DNA of 64,000 bases, from contig CM000436.1 of the NCBI GenBank assembly GCA_000165345.1, positions 576,001 through 640,000 of the forward strand, read 5' to 3'. This document shows, piece after piece, positions 25,387-49,584 of this stretch; position 1 is the stretch's first letter, and every line of letters starts with the position of its first letter. The notes under the pieces are model-generated. The model did not search any database and was not told the DNA's origin. It was given only the letters and a program-made list of their open reading frames with translations. Both the position numbers and the translations under genes were made by a program.

Positions 25387-28300
25387 TTAAAATAGATAAT
25401 ATATAGAAAAAGAAAAACAAAAGAAGAATTCATAAATTAACTTTGGAAATAAAATCTGCCAAATCATTATATTCTCCCTTAATATAATTATTCCCAAAAC
25501 TGTAAATAAGTATTTTGATAATATTATCCCCATCATCCAAATCTTTGGATTCCTTAATCCCAATGATGGAAGCTTAAGCATAATTGATAAAGAAAATAAA
25601 TGAGATGTCAAAAAATATATTACCAATAATTGAGATATTATCAAATGGAAATAATCCAATCCTATCAATCCAACATATTCTGGTATCGTTTCCAACTTTA
25701 ATTTATTACCCAAATTATAGAAATTATTCAATGATAATAAATATAATAAAATAATATTTTCGATACCTTTAATAGGTACCGAAATTAATCTATTATTATT
25801 ATTATTATTATTATTATTTTCTTTTGAATTATGATGAATTATTCCGTCCAATCTTAAACTCTCTATTGAAATTAATTGTATTATACTAGAAATTGAATAT
25901 GGTATTATTAATTCATTCTTTAATAAAAATATTAAAATTAAATGATGATTAAGCCATTGATTGATTAATAATCTATAATCTACAGTATTCTTTGTTTCTA
26001 TTGCACTTTTATCCAATTCTTTAGATAATTTTAATCGATGTCTTTTTATAAATAAATCATATATAGTCTTTGTTAGTTGTATTAAAGCCAAAATACGTAC
26101 AATATTATTATTGTTAATCCAATTAAACCAAACATATATTGGTACAATAACCATGATTAATATATTCCATCTATTTAATATATTCTTATAAACTATTAAT
26201 AATAAAAATAAATAAAATATTAATATAAATAATATAGTAATTTTAGATTTTAATAATAAATGAATATTAAAAAATCCAAAATTTAGAATTTGTTGAATTT
26301 CATAATCAAATATAAATGTAAAACGTATCAATATTAATTGTATAAATGGTAATAACATTTGTCTTAAATTATTTTTTGAACCAGAAAATAATAATATAAT
26401 CTGATAAGATATTAATAAAAATCTCACAACTTTTCCTTCATTTCTTGCAAATGATGCTGAATAACTACAAAAATGTATTAAACATAATAAAGTCATTATA
26501 CACCAATAAAAATTCCATCTCAATTCTTTATTATTCAAACTTAATTTAAAGATATTACAATAAAATGAATGTATCTCATACCGGTATCTTATCAATATGT
26601 GCATCATAATAAGCGTGATAATTGTAAATGTAAAAAAATTACAATAATATATAAAATCTTGGGTAAAAAATAAATTTTGAGAAAATAGATATATTCCAAT
26701 TAAATTAAAAATGGATGATATTAAAATAATAATTAAATAAATAGTAAATAATTGACCAGATTTGAATTGTATTGTATTGTATATAGATAATTGTTGTTTT
26801 GATGATGCTTCATTAGATTCTGAAGATGAAGATAAAGATAAGAATCCTTTTTTTTGATTAAACATGAATCTTGACATGCTTAAATTAAAGCTTGGAATAA
26901 TAATAATTGATACAAATACAAATAATGAAAAAATGATAAGAAATCCTTGAATAATTGATACCCAATCAAACTTGGATTTGTCTTTTAATAGCTTATTTTG
27001 AATAAGCAAAGCAAATTCATATGATAGTTGATAATGTTTCTTACATATACTGATCAAAGTTTCATAATTATTTTTTTGATTACTTTCACCGTTATTTTGA
27101 GCCCTTAATAAGTCAGCATTTTTAACTAATTGATAACTTTTATAGAATTCATAATACTTGGATTTAATTTGAGCGTCCTGTAATCTGATTTGACCTCCTA
27201 AGTTATTTAGGAGTCTGTTAAAGATTTGAAAAGCATTATTATGCATTACTTTTGCGTAATTAATTTCTTGTAAAAATTGTTGATGATGATCTTGATCATC
27301 ATGATCATCATGTTCGGTACCGCTTTTTAGATGGATCTTAAAATCCTCTCTAAATATACCCAAGTTATTTTCTGGTATTGGAATTCCTAATGATGAGGAT
27401 ATAATTGGAATAGTATCAATTTGATTAAGAACTTTAATGTTTTTAATTCTTTCATTTAAAGATACTTGCTCGGAAATTTTATTTTTTACTGGCAAATCCC
27501 ATTCGGGTATCTTTTCCATTGAAGTAATAAAAGGAATTGTAGAGAATGCAAAAAAGCCCGCGTTTGTTTCGGTAATGCAGGAGCCTCCGTGCCCGCCATT
27601 TTCATTCTGACCGTGATCTCCGAATAATAAAAATAAGATTTTTTCAGATTTATTATTTTTTTTAATAAAATTATGGATTTGTTGAGTAAATTCTTTAGGA
27701 GTGAGATGATCATTTTTATTGTTGATTTTGAGAAGTAGTTGTAAAGTTTTGACAGCTGTTTGATCCATTTGGGAGAGTTTATTCTTCATGTCATCGTTAT
27801 AAATACCAGAATAATGTCCAATATGATCAACCCCAATAAAATGATTTACCATAAACTTCCAATCATTATATTTTTCATAATGATTATTTGTATGATTTAA
27901 GAAAAAATTAATTTTATCTTCAACAAATTTATCCAAGCTATCAAAATCTCTGATATCTAATGATCCAAATTTATGATTATAATGAATTAATTCACTATAT
28001 AATAGATCCCATGTATCATCTCCAGCGACTACAGATTTTTTATTTTTTAAGAATAGATTTTTTAAAATAGTTGGAGTTTCTGCGTTATTTTTAGGTCTTA
28101 ATGCAGAAATAAGATCAAATATTCCAGGATTTTCTCCTGACATGAGAGATTTGATTCTAAAGGTTGTTAAGGTTGGGAAATCTGCTTTGAAATTAAAGAA
28201 ACGAATATGATTTTTTAATTCATCACTTCTCATCAATTCGTTTAAATACTTAAATTGATTATGAATTTGATTATTAGGATTTTTCGTTTCAATATTTAAA

Positions 28301-28512
28301 TAATCAATTCTTAAGGCATCAATAATAAAGTAAACTACTTTATCATATATAGGTTCAATTTCAAAATATTCAATTTCCGGTAATTTGAAGTCTTGATTAA
28401 GCGAACCATTTTGTTCTAAATTAGTTTTTTCACCATTAAATCCAATAAAAAATAATACTGTTCCAAGTAGGAGTACTGTTAAATAAGTCACAATTAGAAT
28501 TTGCTTAAACAT
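25387..28512 (-). CDS. GPI ethanolamine-phosphate transferase (PIG-O/PIG-G/PIG-N family; alkaline-phosphatase-like N-domain plus multi-TM C-domain)
   Basis: 1041 aa. It begins with an N-terminal TM helix. The lumenal catalytic domain carries …FIIDALRIDY… and …FLLFGDHGQNENGGHGGSCITETNAGFFAFS…, which are diagnostic of the GPI EtNP transferase sulfatase-fold family. A dozen or more hydrophobic segments follow in the C-terminal half. Confidence 0.75.
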   Translation of the reverse strand: MFKQILIVTYLTVLLLGTVLFFIGFNGEKTNLEQNGSLNQDFKLPEIEYFEIEPIYDKVVYFIIDALRIDYLNIETKNPNNQIHNQFKYLNELMRSDELKNHIRFFNFKADFPTLTTFRIKSLMSGENPGIFDLISALRPKNNAETPTILKNLFLKNKKSVVAGDDTWDLLYSELIHYNHKFGSLDIRDFDSLDKFVEDKINFFLNHTNNHYEKYNDWKFMVNHFIGVDHIGHYSGIYNDDMKNKLSQMDQTAVKTLQLLLKINNKNDHLTPKEFTQQIHNFIKKNNKSEKILFLLFGDHGQNENGGHGGSCITETNAGFFAFSTIPFITSMEKIPEWDLPVKNKISEQVSLNERIKNIKVLNQIDTIPIISSSLGIPIPENNLGIFREDFKIHLKSGTEHDDHDDQDHHQQFLQEINYAKVMHNNAFQIFNRLLNNLGGQIRLQDAQIKSKYYEFYKSYQLVKNADLLRAQNNGESNQKNNYETLISICKKHYQLSYEFALLIQNKLLKDKSKFDWVSIIQGFLIIFSLFVFVSIIIIPSFNLSMSRFMFNQKKGFLSLSSSSESNEASSKQQLSIYNTIQFKSGQLFTIYLIIILISSIFNLIGIYLFSQNLFFTQDFIYYCNFFTFTIITLIMMHILIRYRYEIHSFYCNIFKLSLNNKELRWNFYWCIMTLLCLIHFCSYSASFARNEGKVVRFLLISYQIILLFSGSKNNLRQMLLPFIQLILIRFTFIFDYEIQQILNFGFFNIHLLLKSKITILFILIFYLFLLLIVYKNILNRWNILIMVIVPIYVWFNWINNNNIVRILALIQLTKTIYDLFIKRHRLKLSKELDKSAIETKNTVDYRLLINQWLNHHLILIFLLKNELIIPYSISSIIQLISIESLRLDGIIHHNSKENNNNNNNNNRLISVPIKGIENIILLYLLSLNNFYNLGNKLKLETIPEYVGLIGLDYFHLIISQLLVIYFLTSHLFSLSIMLKLPSLGLRNPKIWMMGIILSKYLFTVLGIIILRENIMIWQILFPKLIYEFFFCFSFSIYYLF

Positions 28513-29155: not shown

Positions 29156-29310
29156 ATAAAAACAAAGGTGACGGTAAACAAGGCATGCAAAAGAGCAGAT
29201 AAGGAAAAAAAAATAGAGCGGATTTTTTTAAAGAGAAAAGAAAGTGAATATTATAAATAAATATATTTAGAATTTTACGGAGGGAGGTATATTAAAGAAA
29301 GGGTAATGTG

Positions 29311-32300
29311 ATGCAATTCAATTATGATGATCTGAATAATAAAAAAATAGATGGTTTTGTTGAGTTTGAGTCAGAATTAGCGAAATTAAGGAAAGAAACA
29401 AGTTTGTTATACAAGAATGAATATGTGAAGGATTTTTTAGAGAATTATCATTTGGAGATAAATGAAGCAAAGGAAAATAGTAAAGGGAGATGGAACAATA
29501 AAGGCGAGAATCTTCAAACAAAAAGAAATTTTAAGTCAACAAAAAACGATATAAATGCTGGCACATATCAGCCATACAGTTATGAAGTTGAATACAAGAG
29601 CGAGCAAGAAAGTGATGATTATTCCAGGAGGAAGAATGTAAAAAGTTTGAAGGAAAGAAAAAAGGAGAAAACTGGGAAAAAAAAAGGGAAGAAGGATTTG
29701 GTTGATGGAGGAATGATTAGTAATAATAATAATAATAATGGATTTGCTGTATTTTCAAGAAAATATGGCACTGAAGATGTTATAAATGGAAAAGGGTATT
29801 TAACAATGGATTTGAGTGAGATAAAAGGAGATATTGTAAAGTCACCAAAAAAAAAAACATCTCAGATTAATGGGGAATCTAAGACTAATAAGAAGAAAGA
29901 GAATTTAAGCTCAGTTAGCAAGAATCCTAAGAAGAATGATTTGAAAGACTCAAAAAAGCAAAAAATTCTATATCGTAATAAAAAGCTCTCTAATCCAGAT
30001 TCCAAGTTAGAGGTAATTTCTCAATCATATTCAATATTCTCTTCTTCTTCATCTTCCTCGGAAGAATCAGAAAATGAATATAGAGATCAAATAAAAAAGT
30101 ACAAGAAACGTCACTATTCTAAGGGAGATGAAAAAATCAAGTATTACTTGGATCAATCTTCTTCATTGGAAGATGAGAATGAAGGTGGAGACGAAGATGA
30201 AGGTATTCAGGAGTTTGAAGACCAAACAAATGGTCTAGCTGTGAGTAATAGCTTCTTATCTAGATTGCCAAATAATAGTCAGGCTCAAGCATTGTTGGCA
30301 TCACAACAGTATGAACAGAACGAAAGAGACCTTTTAATGAAGAGAATTCAGTCTTTAGAAGTAATTGAATCTTCTCAAAAAATGTTAATTTTGGAAACTC
30401 AAAATAAAGAGCAACAGTATAGAATCAGAAGTGAAGAATTACAGAAACAGGTTGAGTACAAAGATACGAAGCTTTTATTGTTGAATCAAGATTATGAAAT
30501 CTTAAAAAGGGATTTTGCATTACTTAAAGATGAAAAGGAAATGTTAAAGAATAAGTATACGGAAATGGAAGCTCATTGGAATCAAGAGTATGGAAATTTA
30601 TACAAATATAAAGTAGATTATGAGATCTTAAGTAAACAAAATGAAACTTTAATGATTGAGAAAAATTCCTTTATTAATTTGATTGAGGAAGATAAAGAAA
30701 GATATAGAAAAATGGAACTAAATAATACTAGTTTGATGTTGAATGTTGACAATTTAGAGAAAAGAAATCATGAAATTGTTGAAAGATGTTCAAAGTTACA
30801 AGAAGATCATGATTCTTTATCTAGAGAATATAATAAACTTTATCAAAAATATACTGCTCTACTTTCAGAGTATACTGCATCTAAAAAGAATGAAGAAAAT
30901 TTGAATGCATCTTTGGTAGAGCTACAGGATATTAACAAGAAACTTGATATTGAAGGAAGAGATATGAAAGAAAAATATAAGACTTTATCAGCTACAGAGA
31001 GAGTTTTAGAGCAGCTTCAAGAATCTAATGCTGAATTAATTGGTGAGATCTCTGCATTAAAAGAAGAAAGAGATATATTATCAGCGGACTATAAGATATT
31101 AGAAAAGAAGTATAAAACTTCAGAAGAGTCTATACATGAAATAAAGAATCAGTTATTAGATTTTACTCTGGAAAATCAAAAATTCAAAAAGTTAATTAAG
31201 CAAACAATTATCCCCTTAATTCCTGATGCTGAATATAATTCTACTATTGGACATATACTAATGGTAATGAATGCTAAAGAAAATTCCAGGATGAGTACTA
31301 AAGTATTAGAAGAGGAATATTTAAATAATATTAATAATAATGGTAAAGGTAAAAACAAGGATGAATTACAATTAGAGATTTCAAAAGTTTGGAAAGGTAT
31401 TGAAAGTCCATTTTCTCCAAAAAAAATCTCTTATATGATGAATGGATTATCTATAGATCATCAAAGTAGTACTATGTCAAGATTATTATCTCCAAAATCT
31501 GTTTCTAAGACTACAAATCTTGAGAAAAATTCCTTAAAATCTCCTTCAAATTCATCATCCCCAAAGAGTTTAAAAAATAAATCTAATAATATAAATAAAA
31601 CTGATCAATCTCCAAAGTCTGCTAAATATAATTCCAATTTGAATAAATTTGAAAAGTTATCTCCAAAAGGTCATCAACTTAATAAGGATGAATTAACTAC
31701 TAAATCAATGCCAATTCTTGATGGGGGAGGTCATATAAGTGAGAAAGTTGTTGTTCCTAAATTATTCAATTCAACTCCTGATTTATATCATGCCGATAAG
31801 AATGAAAATGGAAAGACTTTAAATCAAAATCAAGAAGAAAAGAATCATGTTAGTTTTAAAAAAGGAGTACAAATAGTAACTCCAAGACCTTTAGTAATTG
31901 ATGAGGATGATCATTCAATACCAGTAATATTACCAAAAAGACTTGAAGGAAAGATTAAAGATGTATTAGAAAATGAAGATAAAATTATTCCAGTAATTCC
32001 CAAAAATATTTCAAGTTTTAATGATAAAGAACAATATAATGATGATATTATATTAAACAATGTTGATATTGAGGATGAATCAGAATTTGCATTAGATATA
32101 GGAAAGAAAGAAGAAAATAGCGAGTTTATTGATAAAATAAATAAAAATTTACCAAGTGTTAACGATACAATAAGAATGATTGATAATTTAGAGAAACAGA
32201 TATTACTATTAAATGTTGAGAAAGTTCAACTTGAAGCAGAATTATCAACTTTGCCAAAAGATAATTGGTCAAAGAATGAAAAAGAGAAAAAAAATAAGGA

Positions 32301-32502
32301 TAATATAGAGAGGAGAATATTGGAAATTGAAAATAGTATAATAAAAGCAAGTTCTAATATTAAACATCTCAAAGATAATAAACATAAAAAAAACGATAAT
32401 ACAAATAACAGTCACAAAGATCATCACCATCATCATCATCATCATCATCAACAACAACAACAACAACAAAAACAAAAACATGAAAATAATATAAACAATT
32501 AA
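29311..32502 (+). CDS. Large coiled-coil protein with a K-rich N-terminus and a poly-His/poly-Gln C-terminus (hypothetical)
   Basis: The ORF track starts at a GTG at 29308; the first ATG is 29311. The protein is about 1064 aa. It has a long heptad-like central region (…LLMKRIQSLEVIESSQKMLILETQNKEQQYRIRSEELQKQVEY…), Ser/Lys-rich flanks, and a C-terminal HHHHHHHHHQQQQQQQ run. Confidence 0.5.
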   Translation: MQFNYDDLNNKKIDGFVEFESELAKLRKETSLLYKNEYVKDFLENYHLEINEAKENSKGRWNNKGENLQTKRNFKSTKNDINAGTYQPYSYEVEYKSEQESDDYSRRKNVKSLKERKKEKTGKKKGKKDLVDGGMISNNNNNNGFAVFSRKYGTEDVINGKGYLTMDLSEIKGDIVKSPKKKTSQINGESKTNKKKENLSSVSKNPKKNDLKDSKKQKILYRNKKLSNPDSKLEVISQSYSIFSSSSSSSEESENEYRDQIKKYKKRHYSKGDEKIKYYLDQSSSLEDENEGGDEDEGIQEFEDQTNGLAVSNSFLSRLPNNSQAQALLASQQYEQNERDLLMKRIQSLEVIESSQKMLILETQNKEQQYRIRSEELQKQVEYKDTKLLLLNQDYEILKRDFALLKDEKEMLKNKYTEMEAHWNQEYGNLYKYKVDYEILSKQNETLMIEKNSFINLIEEDKERYRKMELNNTSLMLNVDNLEKRNHEIVERCSKLQEDHDSLSREYNKLYQKYTALLSEYTASKKNEENLNASLVELQDINKKLDIEGRDMKEKYKTLSATERVLEQLQESNAELIGEISALKEERDILSADYKILEKKYKTSEESIHEIKNQLLDFTLENQKFKKLIKQTIIPLIPDAEYNSTIGHILMVMNAKENSRMSTKVLEEEYLNNINNNGKGKNKDELQLEISKVWKGIESPFSPKKISYMMNGLSIDHQSSTMSRLLSPKSVSKTTNLEKNSLKSPSNSSSPKSLKNKSNNINKTDQSPKSAKYNSNLNKFEKLSPKGHQLNKDELTTKSMPILDGGGHISEKVVVPKLFNSTPDLYHADKNENGKTLNQNQEEKNHVSFKKGVQIVTPRPLVIDEDDHSIPVILPKRLEGKIKDVLENEDKIIPVIPKNISSFNDKEQYNDDIILNNVDIEDESEFALDIGKKEENSEFIDKINKNLPSVNDTIRMIDNLEKQILLLNVEKVQLEAELSTLPKDNWSKNEKEKKNKDNIERRILEIENSIIKASSNIKHLKDNKHKKNDNTNNSHKDHHHHHHHHHQQQQQQQKQKHENNINN
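32421..32478 (+). repeat. Coding (CAT/CAC)9 (CAA)7 trinucleotide run, poly-His then poly-Gln
   Basis: catcaccatcatcatcatcatcatcatcaacaacaacaacaacaacaa at the 3' end of the coiled-coil gene. Confidence 0.8.
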
Positions 32503-32551: not shown

Positions 32552-33415
32552 TCAGTAAATATTGTTATATTTTTGAATAAATTTCTGATATTCTTTAGAT
32601 TCTTTATCAAGCTGTTCATTATAAGCACTTGCTATTGAGGCAAAATAGCATCCAAATAGTGGCAATAAAATGGAAGTTAGAAAAGCAAGAATAGCAAGTG
32701 AATATCCCCAAAAGAATTGAATATCAGATACAGATGGTGATTTAAATGTAAATTGAGGATATCCAAAATGTACCAAACTAAAAAATGAATTAATAGCAAT
32801 CCAAGATCCTCCAGCATTTACATAATATATTGGTAAAGTAATCATTGCAATAAGATTTGAGCACCCAAATAAGGTGGTATAAGCATAGGTGAGTGGAATA
32901 GATAAATTCTTATAAGAAAGGATGAATGTAATAAATCCAAAGATTACACATACAAGACAGCCAATAATTCCCGCTATCATTGTTAATGATCCAATATTAA
33001 GCATTCTAAAGTTATAACACGCATTTTGAGCATTTGGAAATTGGTATTTATCAATGGAACATACAGCAGCACTAGCTTCTCCAAAAGTTTTACCATTAAA
33101 ATAGTTAAATCGACTGCATACAAACTCTTCTAGACTAATTGGTGAAATGAAATTTTTTGATCCGTTATTTCGAGAATATTGATCCATAGCTGGTGACCAC
33201 ATATAATTAGTTCTATTACATCTTGATTTAATAGTAAACCCTCTAAGAGAAAGGTTAAAACTAATATATCCCATATTTTTAGTTTCATATACATAATTTT
33301 GCCAATTAGCACTAAAAAGTGATGATATCCATAGAGCTACAACAAGAAAAGTGGCAGTTGCCAAATAATATTTGCTAAATCCTCCAAATGGGTGTTTAGG
33401 TTTTTGGTAGTACAT
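32552..33415 (-). CDS. Tetraspan membrane protein with claudin/PMP22-like topology (candidate CLAMP-like protein)
   Basis: 287 aa. It has 4 predicted TM helices (YLATATFLVVALWISSLF; IGSLTMIAGIIGCLVCVIFGFITFIL; TLFGCSNLIAMITLPIYY; FWGYSLAILAFLTSILLPLFGCYFASIA). A large first extracellular loop contains a W…C…C arrangement (…MWSPAMDQYS…FVCSRFNYFNGKTFGEASAAVCSIDKY), as seen in claudin-family ECL1. Confidence 0.5.
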   Translation of the reverse strand: MYYQKPKHPFGGFSKYYLATATFLVVALWISSLFSANWQNYVYETKNMGYISFNLSLRGFTIKSRCNRTNYMWSPAMDQYSRNNGSKNFISPISLEEFVCSRFNYFNGKTFGEASAAVCSIDKYQFPNAQNACYNFRMLNIGSLTMIAGIIGCLVCVIFGFITFILSYKNLSIPLTYAYTTLFGCSNLIAMITLPIYYVNAGGSWIAINSFFSLVHFGYPQFTFKSPSVSDIQFFWGYSLAILAFLTSILLPLFGCYFASIASAYNEQLDKESKEYQKFIQKYNNIY

Positions 33416-33873
33416 TTATAAGGTGGGTATGCTAATTAAAATATGTTTATATAATTTGCATTTAATTATATTTATATATTTGTGTATATAAATATATATA
33501 TATTTATATATATTATAAATATATAAGAGTTTATTTATTTTCTTTTCAAAGCTTTGAATAAATCATATAATGATTTTTTTTTAATACTGATTTTGGGATT
33601 TGAACTTAGAATAACAGTATCTCCAAAATTAGAAATAGACTTGAAGAAAATTAAAAATAACTTAAGGGCTTGAAGGATATTAAACTTTTAGTATAAAGTC
33701 TTTGACCTGGAAGATTGAAAATCAATATATTTTCACTTAAGTTTTAAATTTCTAAATTAATAATTTCTTTTTTTTTTCTTGTAACGTTGATATTAATTTC
33801 AATTTTACTAGTTTGACTTTAATATTACATTTTTTTTATATCCATTAGAGGTATAATATGATAAAAAAAGTTA

Positions 33874-33972
33874 GTTGGCGCCTTGGCGCCAACAAAATAT
33901 GATTATTTGTAGTTGCATGCATTGAAAAAATTTGCCACGTAATGTAAATGCAAGTAGAGTTTGCATGCAAAC
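33874..33972. promoter_or_regulatory. Dense motif cluster: GTTGGCGCCTTGGCGCCAAC (tandem/palindromic E2F-like), GTTGCATGCATTG, GCCACGTAATG, TTTGCATGCAAAC
   Basis: Located in the divergent promoter between the tetraspan gene (- start at 33415) and the AN1 zinc-finger gene (+ start at 34167). All three recurrent motif classes occur within 100 bp. Confidence 0.4.
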
Positions 33973-34166
33973 AACGGTGTGAATAAAAAAAAAAATCAAT
34001 TAGTTTTTTTTTAAAAAGTGGGAATAATTTAATATATAGAGATTCAGAAGAAAAAATAAATTGTGGATTATTGTTTTTTCTTCTTTTTAAAGAAAACCAA
34101 GATATAAATGATTGTTTTTAAAGAGGAATTTTTTTAAGAGCAAAATAGAATAAAAGGAAAGTCAAA

Positions 34167-40973: not shown

Positions 40974-41810
40974 ATGTTTGAAACAGTTGTATTGGTGGCA
41001 ATATTTACAATAGTTTTTACTGGACTAATTATGGCAGGTTATATTCAATATTATGAGAATGCACCTATAGAAGATATTAGAAAGCTTCTTAAAGAATCCT
41101 ATATAATTTTAGCCTTAATGGAATTATTATTTGGATTATTTGGAATTATTAGCTTTAAAGTAGAAATAGTTTTGCAATTTTTAGATTGGTGGTTATTTTA
41201 TCAAGCAAGTAATAAATATCCATATATATTTAGTATGGATTCATTTTTTCCAGTAAAAGTGATTATAGTTACATTAATTAAAGCAATAATAAGTATAAGA
41301 ACCTCCTTCAATATTCCTTTTAGGTCTCTCATATTTCCATATATAATGTCCACAGTCTGTATATTGCCATTACTATTTGCTTTTTCATATCCATATGAAG
41401 ACTCAGTAAGTTTTAAATAATGGTTAATTTAATTATGTAATAATAACTTAAACAAAATACATTAGAAATTAGCTCATATAGTTTGGGACAAAAGTAATGA
41501 TGAAGACATTTTAACCCGCTTCATTAAGATAGTTATGTCGGAAAGAAGTCGAAATGACTATTTGGTTCATTTGAAGATCCAAATTCAGAGGTAAGTTTTA
41601 ATAATTTCTTGAAAAACAATCAACCCAAGTTGATTGATAATTATCAAGACCAAAAAAAGAAGAAACTAATTTTATTTAATCAAATTTACTCCATTCAGAA
41701 ATATTGCAAGCTTATATAGGCAAAATAAGTATATTCGGTCTATAGTTTCAAAGTCTCCATTATATGTCAAAAACTTTATCGTTTCAAGGGCTAGTATTGA
41801 AGAAATCTAA
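40974..41810 (+). CDS. Hypothetical multi-pass membrane protein, probable 3-exon gene
   Basis: Exon 1 is 40974..41405. It encodes 144 aa with several hydrophobic helices (VVLVAIFTIVFTGLIMAGY…), and the ORF reads through a GTAAGT donor at 41406. Proposed exon 2 is 41466..41590: 41 codons stay open in the correct phase and end at a GTAAGT donor at 41591. Proposed exon 3 is 41699..41810, ending at a TAA stop. Only exon 1 is in the ORF track. Confidence 0.35.
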
Positions 41811-42100
41811 CAAATCCTCTATTACTTCACAGAGACAATTTATCACATATTTCGATACTTAATTTTATCTCAAATTTAAATCTAATTCATTTTTTAATTA
41901 ATTTTCCCACATTTATTTCACACGTAATTTTCTTTTTTCTATAACGGTTTTCCATGCATTTTAACACTTGGCGCCTAAATTTTTGTGTGTGTACAAAATA
42001 ATTTAAATAATTAAATAAATTAAAAGTGCAATTGAAAAAATATTATAAGGAAAGTTAGAAAGCCAGAATTCAATTAAAATAGAAGAATATTCAGGTTAAT

Positions 42101-42891
<791 letters not shown>

Positions 42892-43279
42892 TTTACATTA
42901 TCTAGATCATTTTATTAGCATTTACTTGTAATATTGTCAAATTAAGATTTCTGAGTTGCCGCGCGCGCCCAAAACTTTGTCTAAAATTCTATTTTGTGAT
43001 TTTGACCCCGGAAAAAATAGTATTAATAAAAGTAGAATAAAGAATAAATAAATGGGCAATTTGATTGAACAATGTTCACAAAAAAGGAAGCTTTAGAGGG
43101 CCTTTTGAATTAAAGTACTAGTTTAAGTTTTATTTTAATAATTTTGACGGAAATTAACGCTCCAAAAAGATTATAAATCAAATTATTACGCTTACACAAC
43201 AACCTATAATGCATAAACTCATTATGGTTTTATTAATAATGCAAATATAATAATAAATCGAAATTTTAAATAAATAATA

Positions 43280-45469
43280 ATGACAATTAGTAAGAGGGAG
43301 TTGAGATCATTCTTTGGGAGCTTGCACCCTCTAAATGTGGGGTTAGTTTTCAAAGTATATAAAGAACTCAACTATAATGATATTCAGTTTGATAAGTTAT
43401 CCGTAAGAAGGAATAAGTATACAACAAAGAGTACAGGTTTGGTCAATAATTATACTAAAAGCCAAAAAAGTAATAAAATTCGAGTTAAATATTCCGAATT
43501 TATTAAATATTTGGCAGAAAACCTCTTTGAAATGAATATTAAAGATCTTGGATATCTTCAGAGCTTAGAACTATTGGAAATTTTTCAATATATTAAGGAA
43601 AATGAGCCATCGATTAATAAAATGCATAACTCACATAAGCTAGAAAAATTAATATTTTCAATATTGAAGATTCATATTATATATATTTTGGAATTATCCA
43701 TTTTGCTATCTGAAATGAGTGAAATAAAGGCTATAATTGAAGATTTTTCAAAGTTACTGTTATGCTTTGAGATAAACGTTGAAGATCTTTTTTATAATAT
43801 TAGTGATAATGAACTTATTCAAATATTTAATTTAATTTGTTATTTCTTAGATTTGAAAGAAGAAATTATTTTAGATAAGAATCAGGATAATATCCTTATT
43901 AAAATTTTGAATATTTCTATGAACAAAATAAAAAAGCACTTTAATATTCTCTTACAACATCCATTAAAAATGAGTGAAATAATTAATCAGCCAAATAAAT
44001 CCAAATGGATTAGTTTACTCGATTCTAAAGATATTGTGATTTCAAATGAAGACTTGGTATTATACTTTATATTAAAGAATTTTAATGGTTATTGCGATAA
44101 CTTAATACAAGTTATGGAAATTATCCGTTTCAATTTCCTCTCAGATTCTGCTAAAAATGTGTATAATAGAGTCCAGAGCCCCGTTTTAAACTCAACAAAC
44201 ATAACCAGGAATGAATACTTTGTAAATAATGCATTAAGCTTTCCAAATTCTACAATTAAACCTAAATTTATGATTTTAAACAACTTATCGGATTGGTCTC
44301 AAATTCCCGTTATTAATAAACACTTTGTTATAGAAAATAACCTTAATACTGATGGTTGTTTTTCATATGAGGTACAGATTATGAATCAAGGTAAATTCAG
44401 ATTTCCTGGAAATTTCAATGATTTAGTCAAAACCTGGCATCTTTTCCTAGGAATTTCTATCAAAGTTAATGAAGAATTTCAGCCTTTTATATTTAATCTA
44501 TTTTCACTACTTTGTGAAAACTCTAACAAAAATCACACAGACAAATTTTTCCGTTGCAGTTCGATCTTAAAGTCATCCAAATATGACTTTAAAACAGGAA
44601 ATATATCAAAGAATATAATGGCGCCGGCGCCGACTGCTCTTTATAAAGAAAAGAATTACATGCAAAATGAAGTGGTTATACAAGAGGATGGATTAGTATT
44701 GGCAGATAGCAGTGGAAATGAAATTTGGAGGGATGAAAACAAAGTGATCTTTGTAGTAAATTTGAGGGAGAAGTTTATTTTAGTTGAGATTGGAGGACTA
44801 TTTTCTGTTTATATTGAAATTCTTGATAGTTTGTTTGAATATAGTGGATTACAAACAAAAAACAATCTCATTTTTCCATTAATAAGCTACAATCATGAAT
44901 ATTTTAATATAGAATTGAATTATTATTCTTGTAATTTGAGTATGAAGGAGGAACTGACAAACCTGAAGAAAATACAAAATCAAGAATACAAGAATAGATT
45001 AATTGGGTCCAAAACTAGAAGAAAATTACTCCTTGAGGTTAGTAAGAAACAGTCAGGAGCGCCAAAGAGAGTAACCAGACTTAGACCATCTGGGTCTACT
45101 AATGTTGTGATTCCTTTTTCTATGGATTCTTTAAATTCTCCTTTATTTTCTGTTACTCCTCCAACAGGTAGGAGAGGAAGACCAAAGAAAAATACCAACC
45201 AAGCATACATTAGAGAGTTGGCATATATGAATAACATGAAGGAATACTGTTCTTCATCGTTAGCAAAGGCTTCAAAGAAGAATGGAAGTAGGCAAATTCC
45301 AGAATCTACTGAAGTTCGAGATCCGGGCTCACTTGTAATAAAAAAGATCAAAAAGAAAGTAAAAGCCTCTACTACTAATAATCATCGTTATTTTAATTCC
45401 TTTTTAGGGAAACTTTTTACTAAAAGCCTCGAAAAGCTACTTGGTTTCTTTCGTGGCCGTCTGCTATAG
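43280..45469 (+). CDS. Hypothetical nuclear protein with a C-terminal AT-hook (GRRGRPKKN)
   Basis: A 729-aa ATG ORF. The N-terminal ~550 aa are Asn/Ile-rich with no recognised domain. The C-terminus carries an AT-hook motif (…TPPTGRRGRPKKNTNQ…) and basic patches. A GTTGCCGCGCGCGCCC motif lies upstream at 42956-42976. Confidence 0.5.
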   Translation: MTISKRELRSFFGSLHPLNVGLVFKVYKELNYNDIQFDKLSVRRNKYTTKSTGLVNNYTKSQKSNKIRVKYSEFIKYLAENLFEMNIKDLGYLQSLELLEIFQYIKENEPSINKMHNSHKLEKLIFSILKIHIIYILELSILLSEMSEIKAIIEDFSKLLLCFEINVEDLFYNISDNELIQIFNLICYFLDLKEEIILDKNQDNILIKILNISMNKIKKHFNILLQHPLKMSEIINQPNKSKWISLLDSKDIVISNEDLVLYFILKNFNGYCDNLIQVMEIIRFNFLSDSAKNVYNRVQSPVLNSTNITRNEYFVNNALSFPNSTIKPKFMILNNLSDWSQIPVINKHFVIENNLNTDGCFSYEVQIMNQGKFRFPGNFNDLVKTWHLFLGISIKVNEEFQPFIFNLFSLLCENSNKNHTDKFFRCSSILKSSKYDFKTGNISKNIMAPAPTALYKEKNYMQNEVVIQEDGLVLADSSGNEIWRDENKVIFVVNLREKFILVEIGGLFSVYIEILDSLFEYSGLQTKNNLIFPLISYNHEYFNIELNYYSCNLSMKEELTNLKKIQNQEYKNRLIGSKTRRKLLLEVSKKQSGAPKRVTRLRPSGSTNVVIPFSMDSLNSPLFSVTPPTGRRGRPKKNTNQAYIRELAYMNNMKEYCSSSLAKASKKNGSRQIPESTEVRDPGSLVIKKIKKKVKASTTNNHRYFNSFLGKLFTKSLEKLLGFFRGRLL

Positions 45470-46152: not shown

Positions 46153-49100
46153 ATGTGTAAAGGAAGAAATGCGTGGATGTTGAAAAGTTCGACTTCACTC
46201 ATATTGGCGATATGTTTGGTATTATTCCTAGTTCTGGAAAATGTTAGTTGTGAAGACGTCCCAATAAGACTGAAGACTTCGAATAATTTAAGAGGTGGGC
46301 CTAGTACTAATAGAGAGTCAAATATACTCGTCCCAGCATTTGAGCCAAGTAAAGAGTACGTTGATAAATACTTTTCCTATGTTGAATCTTTTCTCAAAAA
46401 TGTCAATTATTTATCAACTTTGAGTGTTTCTCTTGAGGTATTTAGCTCCATATGCTTTGTATTATGTCTGAGAGGGTTATCCACTCAAGAAACTGCGAAA
46501 AGAGGAAATTCTTTGGGAATCGTTGGGATAATATGTGCAATAGCAGCAACTTTCTTAGCACCGACTTTTACAATGAATTGGATTATGTTCATTGTACCAT
46601 TTGCTCTAGCAATTATCATTGGAATTCCTATATCTCATTGCGTTTCAATGGTTAATATACCTCAATTAGTTGCCTTATTTCACTCATTTGTGGGTTTGGC
46701 AGCAATGTTGATATCTTTTGCAAATTTATGGACACCATTCCAGTCATCTGAGGAAGAATTCTCAGCTGTTCATGCAATTGAGATGTTTATTGGAGAGGCT
46801 ATCTCAGCGATTACTTTTACTGGTAGTATTGTTGCAGCAGGAAAGTTACATGAAATATTCCCTTCAGGAGCTCTTAAGTTGCCTGGGCGTCATTTCTTAA
46901 ATGCGCTAATGGTAGCTGGTCTAATAGCTTTGGGGTCAGTCTTCATTATTATCACAGACTATGCAAATAGAACTTACTTAATGTATGGAAACAGTCTGCT
47001 CTCAATGTTATTGGGAATACATTTGGTGGCTTCTATTGGAGGAGCTGATATGCCTGTAGCAATATCTATGCTCAATTCTTATTCAGGATGGGCCACTTCA
47101 TTCACAGGATTCCTCATCAACTCAAAGATGCTCATTATTTGTGGAGCTCTAATTGGTTCATCTGGTGCAATCCTTTCTCATATTATGTGTTTGGGAATGA
47201 ATAGATCACTACTCAATGTAATGCTTGGAGGATGGGAATCTAATGGAGACTCTAATGAAGCTCAAGCTCTTGGAGATCAATCGGATGTTAATAAAACAAA
47301 TGCAATGAAGGTAGCTAGAGACCTTTTGTCTGCAAAAAAGGTACTTATAGTCCCTGGTTATGGTATGGCCGTTTCAAGATCCCAACAAGATGTAGCTTCT
47401 ATAGTAAATGCTCTTAGACTGAGAGATATTTACGTAGAATTTGCTATACATCCTGTTGCTGGCAGAATGCCAGGTCATATGAATGTATTACTTGCAGAGG
47501 CTGATGTTCCCTACTCTATTGTCAAGGAAATGGAGGATGTAAATCCTCATATGGAAAGTTTTGATGTTGTATTGGTCATTGGAGCAAATGATACAGTAAA
47601 TCCACTTGCACTTGAAAAAGATTCCAAAATTAATGGAATGCCAGTTATAGAAGTTTGGAGAGCTTCTAAGGTTATTGTTTCAAAGAGAAGTCTAGGGAAA
47701 GGATATGCAGCTATTGACAATCCACTCTTCTTTATGAAAAACGTAGAAATGATCTTCGGAAATGCTAAGGATTCTATGATTAACATCTTACAAAATATTA
47801 TTTCCATATCTCCGGAACAAAAGAAAGCCAATTTGAATGATGATCAAGAAACTATTGACGGTACAACAGCATCTCAAGAAGATAATGAAGAGTATCCTAC
47901 CCCTACTATGACTATTGGAGTCTTAAAAGAAGATCTCCCTAGTGAAAAGCTAGTTGCTATTGCTCCAAATTTTGTCAAAAAGCTCCGTAAGCTTGGATTT
48001 AGAGTCCTTGTAGAAAGTGGAGCTGGAACAAAAAGTCAATTTGATGATCAAAAGTACGAAAACGCATCTTGCACAATTATGGCTACTCGTCAAGACGTTG
48101 TAAGTCGATCTGACGTTATTGTTAAGGTACAGAAACCAACTGATGAAGAAATCTCGCAGATGAAATCTGGCCAAACTTTGGTTAGCTACATATGGCCAGC
48201 ACAAAATCCATCGCTGCTTGAATCTTTAGCTAAAAAGGGAGTTACTACTATAGCTTTGGATGAGGTTCCAAGAACTACAAGAGCACAAAAGCTTGATATT
48301 AGAAGCAGTATGAGTAATTTAGCAGGTTATAGAGCTGTAATTGAAGCCTTTGTTCAGCTTCCTAAATTATCAAAGTCTTCTATTACTGCTGCTGGAAGAG
48401 TGGATGCTGCTAGAGTATTTGTAATTGGAGCTGGTGTGGCTGGATTACAGGCTATTGCTACTGCAAAGAACCTTGGGGCTGATGTATATGCAAGCGACAC
48501 AAGAACTGCAACTAGAGAAGAAGTTGAGAGTTTAGGAGCTAAGTTTGTTACTGTTGATATTAAGGAAGATGGCGATTCTGGGTCAGGATATGCCAAAGTA
48601 ATGAGTCCAGAGTACTTAAAAGCACAAAGTAAGCTCTATTCTAAAATGATAAGGAGCTGCGATGTTGTAATTACTACAGCATTAATTCCAGGAAAGCCTT
48701 CACCAAAGATTATCACCAGAGAAATGGTCAATTCTATGAAACCTGGAAGTGTTATTGTCGATATGGCAGCAGAAATGGCTGACACAGCTTCTGGATGGGG
48801 CGGAAATTGCGAAATTACCAAGAAAGATCAAATCTATCTGGATGAAAAGAGTGGTGTTACTATTATTGGACTTACAAATCTACCATCAACTATGCCATCT
48901 CAAGCTTCTGAATTATTTAGTATGAATGTTGTACATATGCTAGAAGAACTTGGAGGAGCAGAGCACTTTTCTGTTGATATGAAAGATGATCTATTGAAGG
49001 AAATGGTTGTTACAATTAACGAAAAAGTTACATATGTACCAGTTGATAAAAGACCTCCCCCACCAAAGAGTGAAAGTTCTAATTCCTCCTCTTCTTCATC

Positions 49101-49584
49101 TTCCAGTTCTTCATCAACAGAAACATCCCATAGATCATTCTCATCAATTATGGAGAGAGTTATCTATTCCAATGTCTCCTTTGGATTCTTCGTATTCATT
49201 TCTGTTCTTGTTTCTATTGGACTTGGTTATATCATTGATCATGATACATTGGGTAATATTCTTGTATTTTCACTCTCTGTTATTGTTGGTTATTACTGTA
49301 TATGGAATGTTACTCCTTCTTTGCATACTCCATTAATGTCTGTAACCAATGCGTTATCTGGGATTATCATTATAGGAGCAATGCTGGAATGTGGCCCAGT
49401 CATTTTATTCACTGATTTCCAAGTCTATTCTTTCCTCTTGTTCTTGGCTATGTTACTCAGCTCCATTAACATAATTGGAGGATTTTATGTTACTACCAGA
49501 ATGTTGTATATGTTCACCGATAACCAAGTTGGATCTTGTACAGGAGAAGAAGCTCAGGGTACAAAGCACACTACAATCATATAA
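46153..49584 (+). CDS. PNT: NAD(P) transhydrogenase, single polypeptide with permuted domain order dIIb-dIII-dI-dIIa (PntB-like portion N-terminal to PntA-like portion)
   Basis: 1143 aa. The N-terminal signal-like segment is followed by multi-TM PntB-type helices (…DMPVAISMLNSYSGWA…). Next comes the NADP(H)-binding dIII domain (…KKVLIVPGYGMAVSRSQQDV… AIHPVAGRMPGHMNVLLAEADVPY… VVLVIGANDTVNP…). Next is the alanine-dehydrogenase-like dI NAD(H) domain (…VFVIGAGVAGLQAIATAKNLGADVYASDTR…), followed by C-terminal TM helices. This beta-before-alpha arrangement is the one described for coccidian/apicomplexan transhydrogenases. Confidence 0.85.
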   Translation: MCKGRNAWMLKSSTSLILAICLVLFLVLENVSCEDVPIRLKTSNNLRGGPSTNRESNILVPAFEPSKEYVDKYFSYVESFLKNVNYLSTLSVSLEVFSSICFVLCLRGLSTQETAKRGNSLGIVGIICAIAATFLAPTFTMNWIMFIVPFALAIIIGIPISHCVSMVNIPQLVALFHSFVGLAAMLISFANLWTPFQSSEEEFSAVHAIEMFIGEAISAITFTGSIVAAGKLHEIFPSGALKLPGRHFLNALMVAGLIALGSVFIIITDYANRTYLMYGNSLLSMLLGIHLVASIGGADMPVAISMLNSYSGWATSFTGFLINSKMLIICGALIGSSGAILSHIMCLGMNRSLLNVMLGGWESNGDSNEAQALGDQSDVNKTNAMKVARDLLSAKKVLIVPGYGMAVSRSQQDVASIVNALRLRDIYVEFAIHPVAGRMPGHMNVLLAEADVPYSIVKEMEDVNPHMESFDVVLVIGANDTVNPLALEKDSKINGMPVIEVWRASKVIVSKRSLGKGYAAIDNPLFFMKNVEMIFGNAKDSMINILQNIISISPEQKKANLNDDQETIDGTTASQEDNEEYPTPTMTIGVLKEDLPSEKLVAIAPNFVKKLRKLGFRVLVESGAGTKSQFDDQKYENASCTIMATRQDVVSRSDVIVKVQKPTDEEISQMKSGQTLVSYIWPAQNPSLLESLAKKGVTTIALDEVPRTTRAQKLDIRSSMSNLAGYRAVIEAFVQLPKLSKSSITAAGRVDAARVFVIGAGVAGLQAIATAKNLGADVYASDTRTATREEVESLGAKFVTVDIKEDGDSGSGYAKVMSPEYLKAQSKLYSKMIRSCDVVITTALIPGKPSPKIITREMVNSMKPGSVIVDMAAEMADTASGWGGNCEITKKDQIYLDEKSGVTIIGLTNLPSTMPSQASELFSMNVVHMLEELGGAEHFSVDMKDDLLKEMVVTINEKVTYVPVDKRPPPPKSESSNSSSSSSSSSSSTETSHRSFSSIMERVIYSNVSFGFFVFISVLVSIGLGYIIDHDTLGNILVFSLSVIVGYYCIWNVTPSLHTPLMSVTNALSGIIIIGAMLECGPVILFTDFQVYSFLLFLAMLLSSINIIGGFYVTTRMLYMFTDNQVGSCTGEEAQGTKHTTII

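Follow-up and report, generated by a model that had tools for sequence, protein, structure and literature searches.

cgd8_2280, a conserved Cryptosporidium-restricted membrane protein with a predicted claudin-like fold

CLAMP is an apicomplexan microneme protein with four transmembrane (TM) helices, cytosolic ends, and residues in common with claudins (PMC10690463). CLIP and SPATR are its partners in a complex. Its C-terminal, cytosolic proline-rich domain is needed for rhoptry discharge and dispensable for complex formation (PMC10690463). Every apicomplexan genome is reported to carry CLAMP (PMC10047546, PMC9815656), which is described as highly conserved and readily found (PMC9815656, PMC10690463). 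Here, we analyse cgd8_2280, a Cryptosporidium parvum gene at positions 32552-33415 (minus strand) of a 64,000-nucleotide stretch of DNA (GenBank assembly GCA_000165345.1, contig CM000436.1, positions 576,001 to 640,000 of the forward strand), referred to below as the window. An earlier reading made from the DNA letters alone (the sequence-only reading) had proposed that this gene encodes a tetraspan protein resembling the claudin fold, and had suggested a relationship to CLAMP.

We propose that cgd8_2280 encodes a Cryptosporidium-restricted tetraspan protein of claudin-like architecture, with an enlarged, disulfide-braced first extracellular loop (ECL1), that probably works through contacts made by its outer sheet and by a highly conserved face consisting of TM3, the second extracellular loop (ECL2) and TM4. 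We put the probability of this reading at about one half. What the data show directly is the identity of cgd8_2280 as an intact, transcribed and conserved gene that is under purifying selection, is confined to Cryptosporidium, and has a product with four hydrophobic segments. The fold and the sheet are predictions from structural models, and we infer the disulfides, how the protein acts, and its placement in the surface membrane or the membrane of a secretory organelle. A claudin-shaped tetraspan protein of this kind would probably be new as a variant.

A conserved gene confined to Cryptosporidium

The cgd8_2280 open reading frame (ORF) is intact from ATG through stop; its single exon encodes 287 residues, with the stop codon at 32552-32554. 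The product matches C. parvum Iowa II XP_627131.1/EAK89422.1 exactly. Published cgd8_2280 primers for quantitative reverse transcription PCR (qRT-PCR) have unique placements inside the ORF, at 32968-32989 and 32792-32813, and we therefore assign the gene name cgd8_2280 to it. Two further genes anchor the nomenclature, namely cgd8_2260, which is the PIG-O gene (a phosphodiesterase-like ORF of 1041 residues at 25387-28512), and cgd8_2330, which encodes a transhydrogenase (46153-49584). The databases annotate XP_627131.1/EAK89422.1 as a "hypothetical protein" or an "uncharacterized protein with 5 transmembrane domain", with five TM segments predicted by UniProt, and our literature search found no mention of cgd8_2280 or its accessions in the main texts of papers.

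Full-length orthologues are present in 10 other Cryptosporidium clusters, with identities ranging from 97% (C. meleagridis) down to 53% (the gastric species C. serpentis). The resulting 11 sequences align from end to end, and this alignment is also the basis of the profile and the structural models described below. A search with the single sequence returned only Cryptosporidium proteins, one per genome. A HMMER profile of the 11 sequences found nothing outside Cryptosporidium at E <= 0.001 among 1.84 billion representative proteins, a scale at which a match good enough for E = 1e-5 against a small parasite database might miss the threshold. Cryptosporidium proteins alone were recovered by a word-indexed profile search of 3656 word-sharing candidates, even at E <= 10, and JGI metagenomes scanned for the motifs IQFFWGY and WIAINS[FL]F yielded no relatives.

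The genomic context is shared by C. ubiquitum, C. bovis and C. serpentis: a gene for an SNF2 helicase and an AN1 zinc-finger gene are followed by the divergently oriented cgd8_2280 orthologue, and all three loci continue with a convergent gene of about 1000 codons. Comparison of cgd8_2280 with the orthologues from these three species gives ratios of nonsynonymous to synonymous substitution rates (dN/dS) of 0.15-0.25, indicating purifying selection. With this constraint, and with the transcription described below, cgd8_2280 is a real gene, and its product is a genus-restricted, strongly conserved membrane protein. Conservation is distributed unevenly along the protein: invariant columns make up 59-74% of TM3, ECL2 and TM4 and about 50% of the first part of ECL1, where strands are predicted, and of its Cys-rich last part, but only 0-13% of ECL1 residues 67-94 and of both cytosolic ends.

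Predicted topology and fold

We called TM segments from the Kyte-Doolittle mean over 19 residues, with a cut-off of 1.4. Exactly four segments exceed this value: residues 16-37, 136-175, 181-199 and 232-264. The sequence-only reading had described four TM helices and a large first extracellular loop, and both descriptions are borne out, the former by the four hydropathy peaks and by AlphaFold2 (AF2) helices at residues 14-33, 129-169, 175-218 and 232-286, and the latter by a loop of about 100 residues (approximately 38-138), roughly twice as long as a classical claudin ECL1. Residues 200-220 are mildly hydrophobic, with a mean near 0.9 that is below the cut-off, which probably explains the "5 transmembrane" name in UniProt. 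Lys and Arg residues are concentrated in the N-terminal end (three), the TM2-TM3 loop (one) and the C-terminal tail (four), with one in ECL2, and we therefore predict an N-in/C-in orientation. These features support four membrane passes, with the N- and C-terminal ends both cytosolic. Since the cytosolic ends are short and unconserved, the protein is not expected to be an enzyme or a cytosolic signalling adaptor.

All protein segments are encoded on the minus strand. The putative cytosolic N-terminal end (residues 1-15; 33371-33415) is basic, with Lys at positions 5, 7 and 15, has 13% invariant columns, and is modelled with a predicted local distance difference test score (pLDDT) below 50 at residues 1-7. 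It is followed by TM1 (residues 16-37; 33305-33370), which is called by hydropathy and coincides with the AF2 helix at 14-33. TM1 is likely to be an uncleaved signal anchor, because its hydrophobic core exceeds 20 residues and lacks a following cleavage pair of small residues at -3/-1; we rejected a cleavable signal peptide on the same grounds.

ECL1 has three parts. The first (residues 38-66; 33218-33304) begins with Trp38 directly after TM1 and ends with Cys66; it has 52% invariant columns, predicted strands at residues 39-45, 49-55 and 59-63, and an L57-[R/W]58-G59-F60 motif. The second (residues 67-94; 33134-33217) is a hypervariable insert with sequons at N67 and N84, 0% invariant columns, and low model confidence (pLDDT below 50 at residues 78-91). 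The third (residues 95-138; 33002-33133) contains Cys100, Cys119 and Cys133 and two short predicted helices, has 45% invariant columns, and includes a conserved FPNAQxACYNFRMLN stretch that runs into TM2. Trp38 and the four Cys residues at positions 66, 100, 119 and 133 are invariant in the 11 orthologues. Hence, of the W...C...C arrangement that the sequence-only reading had seen in this loop, the Trp and the Cys residues stand, while the number of Cys residues is four rather than two.

The remainder of the protein is compact. TM2 (residues 139-168; 32912-33001), called by hydropathy, lies within the AF2 helix at 129-169. It is connected by a short cytosolic loop containing K169 (residues 169-172; 32900-32911; placed by hydropathy and AF2) to TM3 (residues 173-199; 32819-32899), which has a conserved LFGCSN stretch and 59% invariant columns. 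The predicted TM3 helix extends past the membrane, running from 175 to 218 in the C. parvum model and from 168 to 209 in a model of the C. serpentis orthologue; a long TM3 is a known feature of claudins. ECL2 (residues 200-235; 32711-32818) contains NAGGSWIAINS and IQFFWGYS motifs, has 64% invariant columns, and has no Cys residues; its one predicted strand, placed at residues 224-225 in the C. parvum model and at 218-222 in that of the orthologue, would belong to the same sheet as the ECL1 strands. TM4 (residues 236-262; 32630-32710), with an LLPLFGCYF motif, is the most conserved part of the protein (74% invariant columns). The cytosolic C-terminal tail (residues 263-287; 32555-32629) is helical, Lys/Glu-rich and proline-free, with 0% invariant columns, and in most species ends in Y-N-x-[IVL]-[YR]. 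We note that an invariant L-F-G-C tetrapeptide occurs twice, in the LFGCSN stretch of TM3 (residues 183-186; approximately 32858-32869) and in the LFGCYF stretch of TM4 (residues 254-257; approximately 32645-32656). Cys256 is near the cytosolic end of TM4, and claudins carry palmitoylated Cys residues at the cytosolic end of TM4.

Two AF2 models suggest a claudin-like arrangement of these elements. The first, with the C. parvum protein as target and the 11-sequence alignment as input (pLDDT 69.7, predicted TM-score 0.61), has a helix at 14-33, strands at 39-45, 49-55 and 59-63, short helices, long helices at 129-169 and 175-218, a short ECL2 strand, and a final helix at 232-286. The second, made for the orthologue from C. 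serpentis, has a lower confidence (pLDDT 62.1); it repeats the same order of elements, and its ECL2 strand is clearer. In a Foldseek search of the PDB, the best 15 matches to the first model all belong to the claudin superfamily (TARP gamma-2/5/7, claudin-19 and GARLH4/LHFPL4), with E-values of 0.1-0.4 and target-normalised TM-scores of 0.28-0.53; seven of the eight best matches to the second model are GSG1L, GARLH4 or DUOXA1 (E-values of 0.16-0.9). Neither model has a match at E <= 0.001. We conclude that the shape of the protein is probably claudin-like at the level of the fold, as judged from structural matches that are statistically weak and consistent in direction.

In the proposed arrangement, the protein would most likely cross the membrane four times as a claudin/PMP22/TARP-type tetraspan with both ends in the cytosol, and its helices would form a left-handed four-helix bundle. 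ECL1 and one strand from ECL2 would form a small beta-sheet, with the enlarged ECL1 presumably braced by disulfides among the four invariant Cys residues. The outer sheet and the highly conserved TM3-ECL2-TM4 face would then probably make protein-protein contacts, by analogy with other proteins of this shape, and the protein may serve as an adhesion, membrane-organising or auxiliary subunit.

Several observations weigh against this proposal. Both models derive from one shallow alignment (effective number of sequences, 1.7) and have moderate pLDDT scores of 62-70, and AF2 may have defaulted to a familiar tetraspan shape. A Pfam search with all 11 orthologues at E <= 10 detected neither PF00822 (PMP22_Claudin) nor PF13903 (Claudin_2) nor any related family, and returned only noise (PDGLE and ABC2_membrane_5). 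For profile-profile comparison, we assembled a reference alignment of seven proteins (CLDN1, CLDN2, CLDN4, CLDN5, PMP22, EMP1 and stargazin) and validated their sequences: CLDN4 matches PDB entry 7tdm_A with 451 bits over residues 1-209, and the seven proteins match PF00822 with scores of 75-193 bits. Alignment of the cgd8_2280 family to this reference with hhalign gave a probability of 0.2% (E = 0.3), and a search of PDB sequences with the family profile returned no claudins. The strict claudin signature of W-GLW-C-C (W, approximately 17-20 residues, G-L-W-x-x-C, 8-10 residues, C) is absent from cgd8_2280. The loop pattern is instead W...C...C...C...C: Trp38 is 19 residues from L57, as compared to 20 residues between W30 and L50 in claudins, and C. 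bovis, C. ryanae and C. serpentis have a Trp residue at position 58, but the first Cys falls eight residues past position 58, where the claudin signature has three, and the next Cys is a further 34 residues away. ECL1 is twice the classical length. Lastly, conservation is higher in the membrane core than in ECL1, the opposite of what is expected if the protein acted in adhesion by ECL1 alone. We also looked for the C-terminal PDZ-binding -YV motif, which is specific to classical claudins, and did not find it in the tail, the last residues of which are -NNIY in C. parvum and -VY, -LR, -YL or -RY in the other species. By every sequence test that we ran, cgd8_2280 is outside PF00822. Thus, the claudin resemblance put forward by the sequence-only reading holds for the best structural matches, at weak E-values, and fails for membership of the family by sequence.

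The main rival explanation is that cgd8_2280 is an unrelated housekeeping protein with four or five membrane passes, for example a resident of the endoplasmic reticulum or Golgi or a transporter subunit or chaperone, and that its claudin-like matches are an artefact of generic four-helix-bundle geometry combined with a shallow alignment. Indeed, the structural matches have weak scores, and generic bundles are mixed in among them; nonetheless, the best Foldseek matches are nearly all from the claudin superfamily rather than from random bundles, and the predicted strands are present in both AF2 models. A five-pass protein would agree with the UniProt prediction. The pattern of conservation can be read in two ways, since the helices are the most conserved part and hold the invariant polar residues N140, S186, N187, Q233 and Y177/Y179, whereas four invariant Cys residues and a conserved strand region within a long lumenal or extracellular loop are typical of a disulfide-braced ectodomain. 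Moreover, there is no match to a Pfam transporter family, and restriction to one genus would be unusual for core housekeeping machinery. We consider a housekeeping membrane subunit to be unlikely on balance, although it is the foremost alternative to a claudin-like tetraspan.

A relationship to CLAMP, as an orthologue or paralogue, was the most specific suggestion of the sequence-only reading. If cgd8_2280 were a highly diverged CLAMP orthologue or a functional equivalent, it would be a microneme tetraspan that acts with homologues of CLIP and SPATR to license rhoptry discharge upon host contact. The predicted gross plan of four TM helices, cytosolic ends and claudin-like features matches that of CLAMP (PMC10690463), but the 25-residue C-terminal tail, with no proline and no invariant columns, has no counterpart to the essential proline-rich domain. 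Similarly, ECL1 (38-138) and ECL2 (200-235) are close in size to the loops implied for Theileria equi CLAMP by an ECL1 epitope at residues 103-136 and ECL2 epitopes at 208-232 (PMC8085155), but ECL2 of T. equi CLAMP has two Cys residues where that of cgd8_2280 has none. Our sequence comparison used the published T. equi CLAMP peptides (PMC8085155) only, rather than a full-length CLAMP: local alignments of the loop peptides to cgd8_2280 were no better than those of shuffled peptides (z = -0.5 and 0.3), and a chimeric query made from the peptides retrieved nothing from a large protein collection. The presence of cgd8_2280 as a single-copy gene under purifying selection in every Cryptosporidium genome examined is compatible with a CLAMP-like role, as is the fact that CLAMP is reported from all apicomplexan genomes while no named C. 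parvum CLAMP gene emerged from our literature search. However, the profile built from the 11 orthologues reaches no apicomplexan protein beyond Cryptosporidium, though CLAMP is described as easily found, and no database annotator has named cgd8_2280 as CLAMP. With a profile confined to Cryptosporidium, a proline-free tail, and T. equi peptides that align at shuffle level, assignment of cgd8_2280 as a CLAMP orthologue or paralogue is not supported, and we regard the CLAMP reading as a minority possibility of low probability.

The only nominally significant match to a PDB sequence was to the chemokine receptor CXCR4, with residues 140-226 of the family profile (approximately 32738-32998 in the window) aligning to CXCR4 residues 42-122, approximately, with 19 bits and E = 0.006; the match with the single sequence had E = 0.05. 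The alignment spans TM1, the first intracellular loop and TM2 of CXCR4, and pairs ITLPiyyVnAggsW with ITLPFWAVDAVANW. This could be taken to suggest distant kinship with seven-pass chemokine-type receptors, but just one hydrophobic helical hairpin is aligned, four hydrophobic segments are present rather than seven, no 7tm Pfam family is matched, G-protein-coupled receptors are absent from the structural matches, and the score is typical of compositional similarity among membrane helices. The segment count effectively refutes a receptor of this type, and we consider the kinship extremely improbable.

Two other families were considered and rejected. The sequence-only reading had named the tetraspanins (PF00335) as an assignment that would count against a claudin-like protein; in cgd8_2280 it is the first loop that is large and carries Cys residues, ECL2 has none, and there is no Pfam match, such that this assignment fails. 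For DUOXA (PF10204), which has five TM helices, the likeness is at the level of the fold only: four segments of cgd8_2280 pass the hydropathy cut-off, and there is no Pfam match.

Expression, upstream region and neighbouring genes

Published datasets show that cgd8_2280 is transcribed. By qRT-PCR, transcripts are found at all times sampled between 2 and 72 h, at 2e-4 to 1.6e-3 of 18S ribosomal RNA and dipping at 6 h. The invasion-related gp40/15 gene differs, with a level near zero at 2-6 h and its peak at 12 h (PMC3305300 supplement). Detection at all time points is consistent with a housekeeping function, and the nearly flat profile, lacking the 12 h peak of gp40/15, may count against a CLAMP-like one. 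By RNA-seq, log2 counts per million (CPM) are 9.4, 8.8 and 9.6 in excysted sporozoites, 5.7, 6.2 and 5.9 at 24 h, and 6.6, 6.6 and 6.5 at 48 h, and the gene is on a list of sporozoite-expressed genes (PMC6877471 supplement). Transcripts are thus about 10-fold higher in sporozoites. Such enrichment would fit a function in invasive parasites, including the role proposed for a CLAMP equivalent, but it does not discriminate between the readings, because it is common to many housekeeping genes of the same cluster. We note that the two datasets agree poorly in level and profile: by qRT-PCR, cgd8_2280 exceeds its neighbour cgd8_2290 about 1000-fold and changes little over time (PMC3305300), while its RNA-seq level in culture is only moderate, at about 60-100 CPM, with the 10-fold excess in sporozoites (PMC6877471).

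cgd8_2280 and the AN1 zinc-finger gene, cgd8_2290, are separated by a divergent intergenic spacer of 751 bp (33416-34166; 21% G+C). The divergent arrangement is kept in other species, with spacers of 733 bp in C. ubiquitum (locus L001, 2768-3500), 364 bp in C. bovis (locus L002, 3137-3500) and 172 bp in C. serpentis (locus L003, 3329-3500). Within the C. parvum spacer is a motif cluster (33876-33969) in which tandem E2F-like TGGCGCC sites (33876-33891) are accompanied by an ACGTG box and by a pair of TGCATGCA palindromes (33914-33921 and 33962-33969). The tandem GGCGCC pair is at the same distances in C. ubiquitum, degenerate in C. bovis, and absent in C. serpentis. The sequence-only reading had described a motif-dense divergent promoter shared by the two genes. 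The cluster is real, the gene arrangement is conserved and the cluster is partly so, but it stands 195-290 bp away from the AN1 ATG, as against 460-555 bp for the ATG of cgd8_2280. A shared bidirectional promoter is possible; the cluster is more simply assigned to the AN1 gene, because it is nearer to that start codon. Separate conserved blocks are found nearer to cgd8_2280, with TAAATGCAAAT located 37-46 bp upstream of the ATG in two species, and the non-coding blocks common to the C. parvum and C. ubiquitum spacers include AATGTAATATTAAAGTCAAACT, AGGTCAAAGAC, TTTGGAGATACT and TAAATGCAAAT.

The elements of the cluster recur throughout the window, where TGGCGCC occurs 21 times (0.38 expected) and TGCATGCA occurs 18 times (0.56 expected). 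The E2F-like palindrome TGGCGCCA and TGCATGCA are each more than 30-fold over-represented, mostly in intergenic regions or upstream of genes (for example at 1431, 1720, 12807, 35210, 51553, 56424 and 61550). They are general Cryptosporidium promoter elements, and nothing special to the cgd8_2280 locus.

The window as a whole is about 30% G+C, and its genes are closely packed and intron-poor. On the other side of cgd8_2280 is a convergent ORF of about 1064 residues (29308-32502, plus strand), inferred to be cgd8_2270, whose Lys/Glu/Asn-rich product has no Pfam domain and terminates in a His9-Gln7 tract (about 32425-32470). Three other species have homologues at the same position, with lengths of 938-1056 residues. 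The stop codons of cgd8_2270 (ending at 32502) and cgd8_2280 (32552-32554) are 49 bp apart, so the 3' untranslated regions of the two genes must overlap or be extremely short. Elsewhere in the window, a stretch of about 1.9 kb (41420-43280), between ORFs of 148 and 729 residues, has no ORF of at least 80 residues on either strand; it could correspond to an intron-containing or non-coding gene. The lowest G+C content in the window (0.236) is at 42001-44000.

Significance and comparison with known systems

Cryptosporidium is a major cause of childhood diarrhoea. To our knowledge, it lacks several invasion proteins that are used by Toxoplasma and Plasmodium, and genus-specific surface or secretory membrane proteins are for this reason candidates for functions in attachment and in the epicellular niche. 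cgd8_2280 is single-copy, constrained and sporozoite-enriched, with an exposed, presumably disulfide-braced loop and a hypervariable insert, and is therefore a tractable target for tagging or knock-down, and possibly an antigen. Speculatively, and with a probability that we regard as very low, it might be a parasite claudin-fold protein that sporozoites place at the surface, where it would contribute to the sealed zone of attachment to the enterocyte that is unique to Cryptosporidium, a tight-junction-like annular ring, or it might be a replacement for CLAMP that triggers discharge of the single rhoptry. If so, it would represent a lineage-specific means of host-cell docking that is invisible to standard homology searches; if cgd8_2280 encodes a housekeeping membrane subunit, the finding is an ordinary one. 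At present, we view cgd8_2280 as a plausible lead rather than a discovery.

As compared to CLAMP, cgd8_2280 is likewise an apicomplexan protein with four predicted TM helices, cytosolic ends, similar loop proportions and expression in an invasive stage, and is claudin-like only at the level of topology and fold. It differs in having no proline-rich cytosolic domain, in the Cys framework of ECL2, and in having no sequence link to any protein from outside Cryptosporidium. Tetraspanins also have four TM helices and cytosolic ends, but their first loop is small and their second is large, with a CCG motif. DUOXA1, a dual oxidase maturation factor of the five-TM PF10204 family, reportedly has a claudin-like domain as its core, according to cryo-EM papers from 2020-2021; we know of no NOX/DUOX partner in Cryptosporidium.

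The closest comparison is with the claudin/PMP22/EMP/MP20/TARP-gamma/LHFPL/GSG1L group. Whereas the claudin ECL1 has about 50 residues and two Cys, that of cgd8_2280 has about 100 residues, four Cys and a hypervariable insert, with GLW-x-x-C replaced by L-[R/W]-G-F-x5-C. In addition, cgd8_2280 lacks the -YV PDZ motif and detectable sequence kinship, its membrane core is more conserved than its ECL1, and its family is confined to one protist genus. What cgd8_2280 would have in common with this group is a plan of four TM helices with an N-in/C-in orientation, an ECL1 that is larger than ECL2, a Trp residue after TM1, Cys residues in ECL1, predicted ECL1 strands together with one ECL2 strand, and a long TM3, and it is among these proteins that both AF2 models find their best structural matches.

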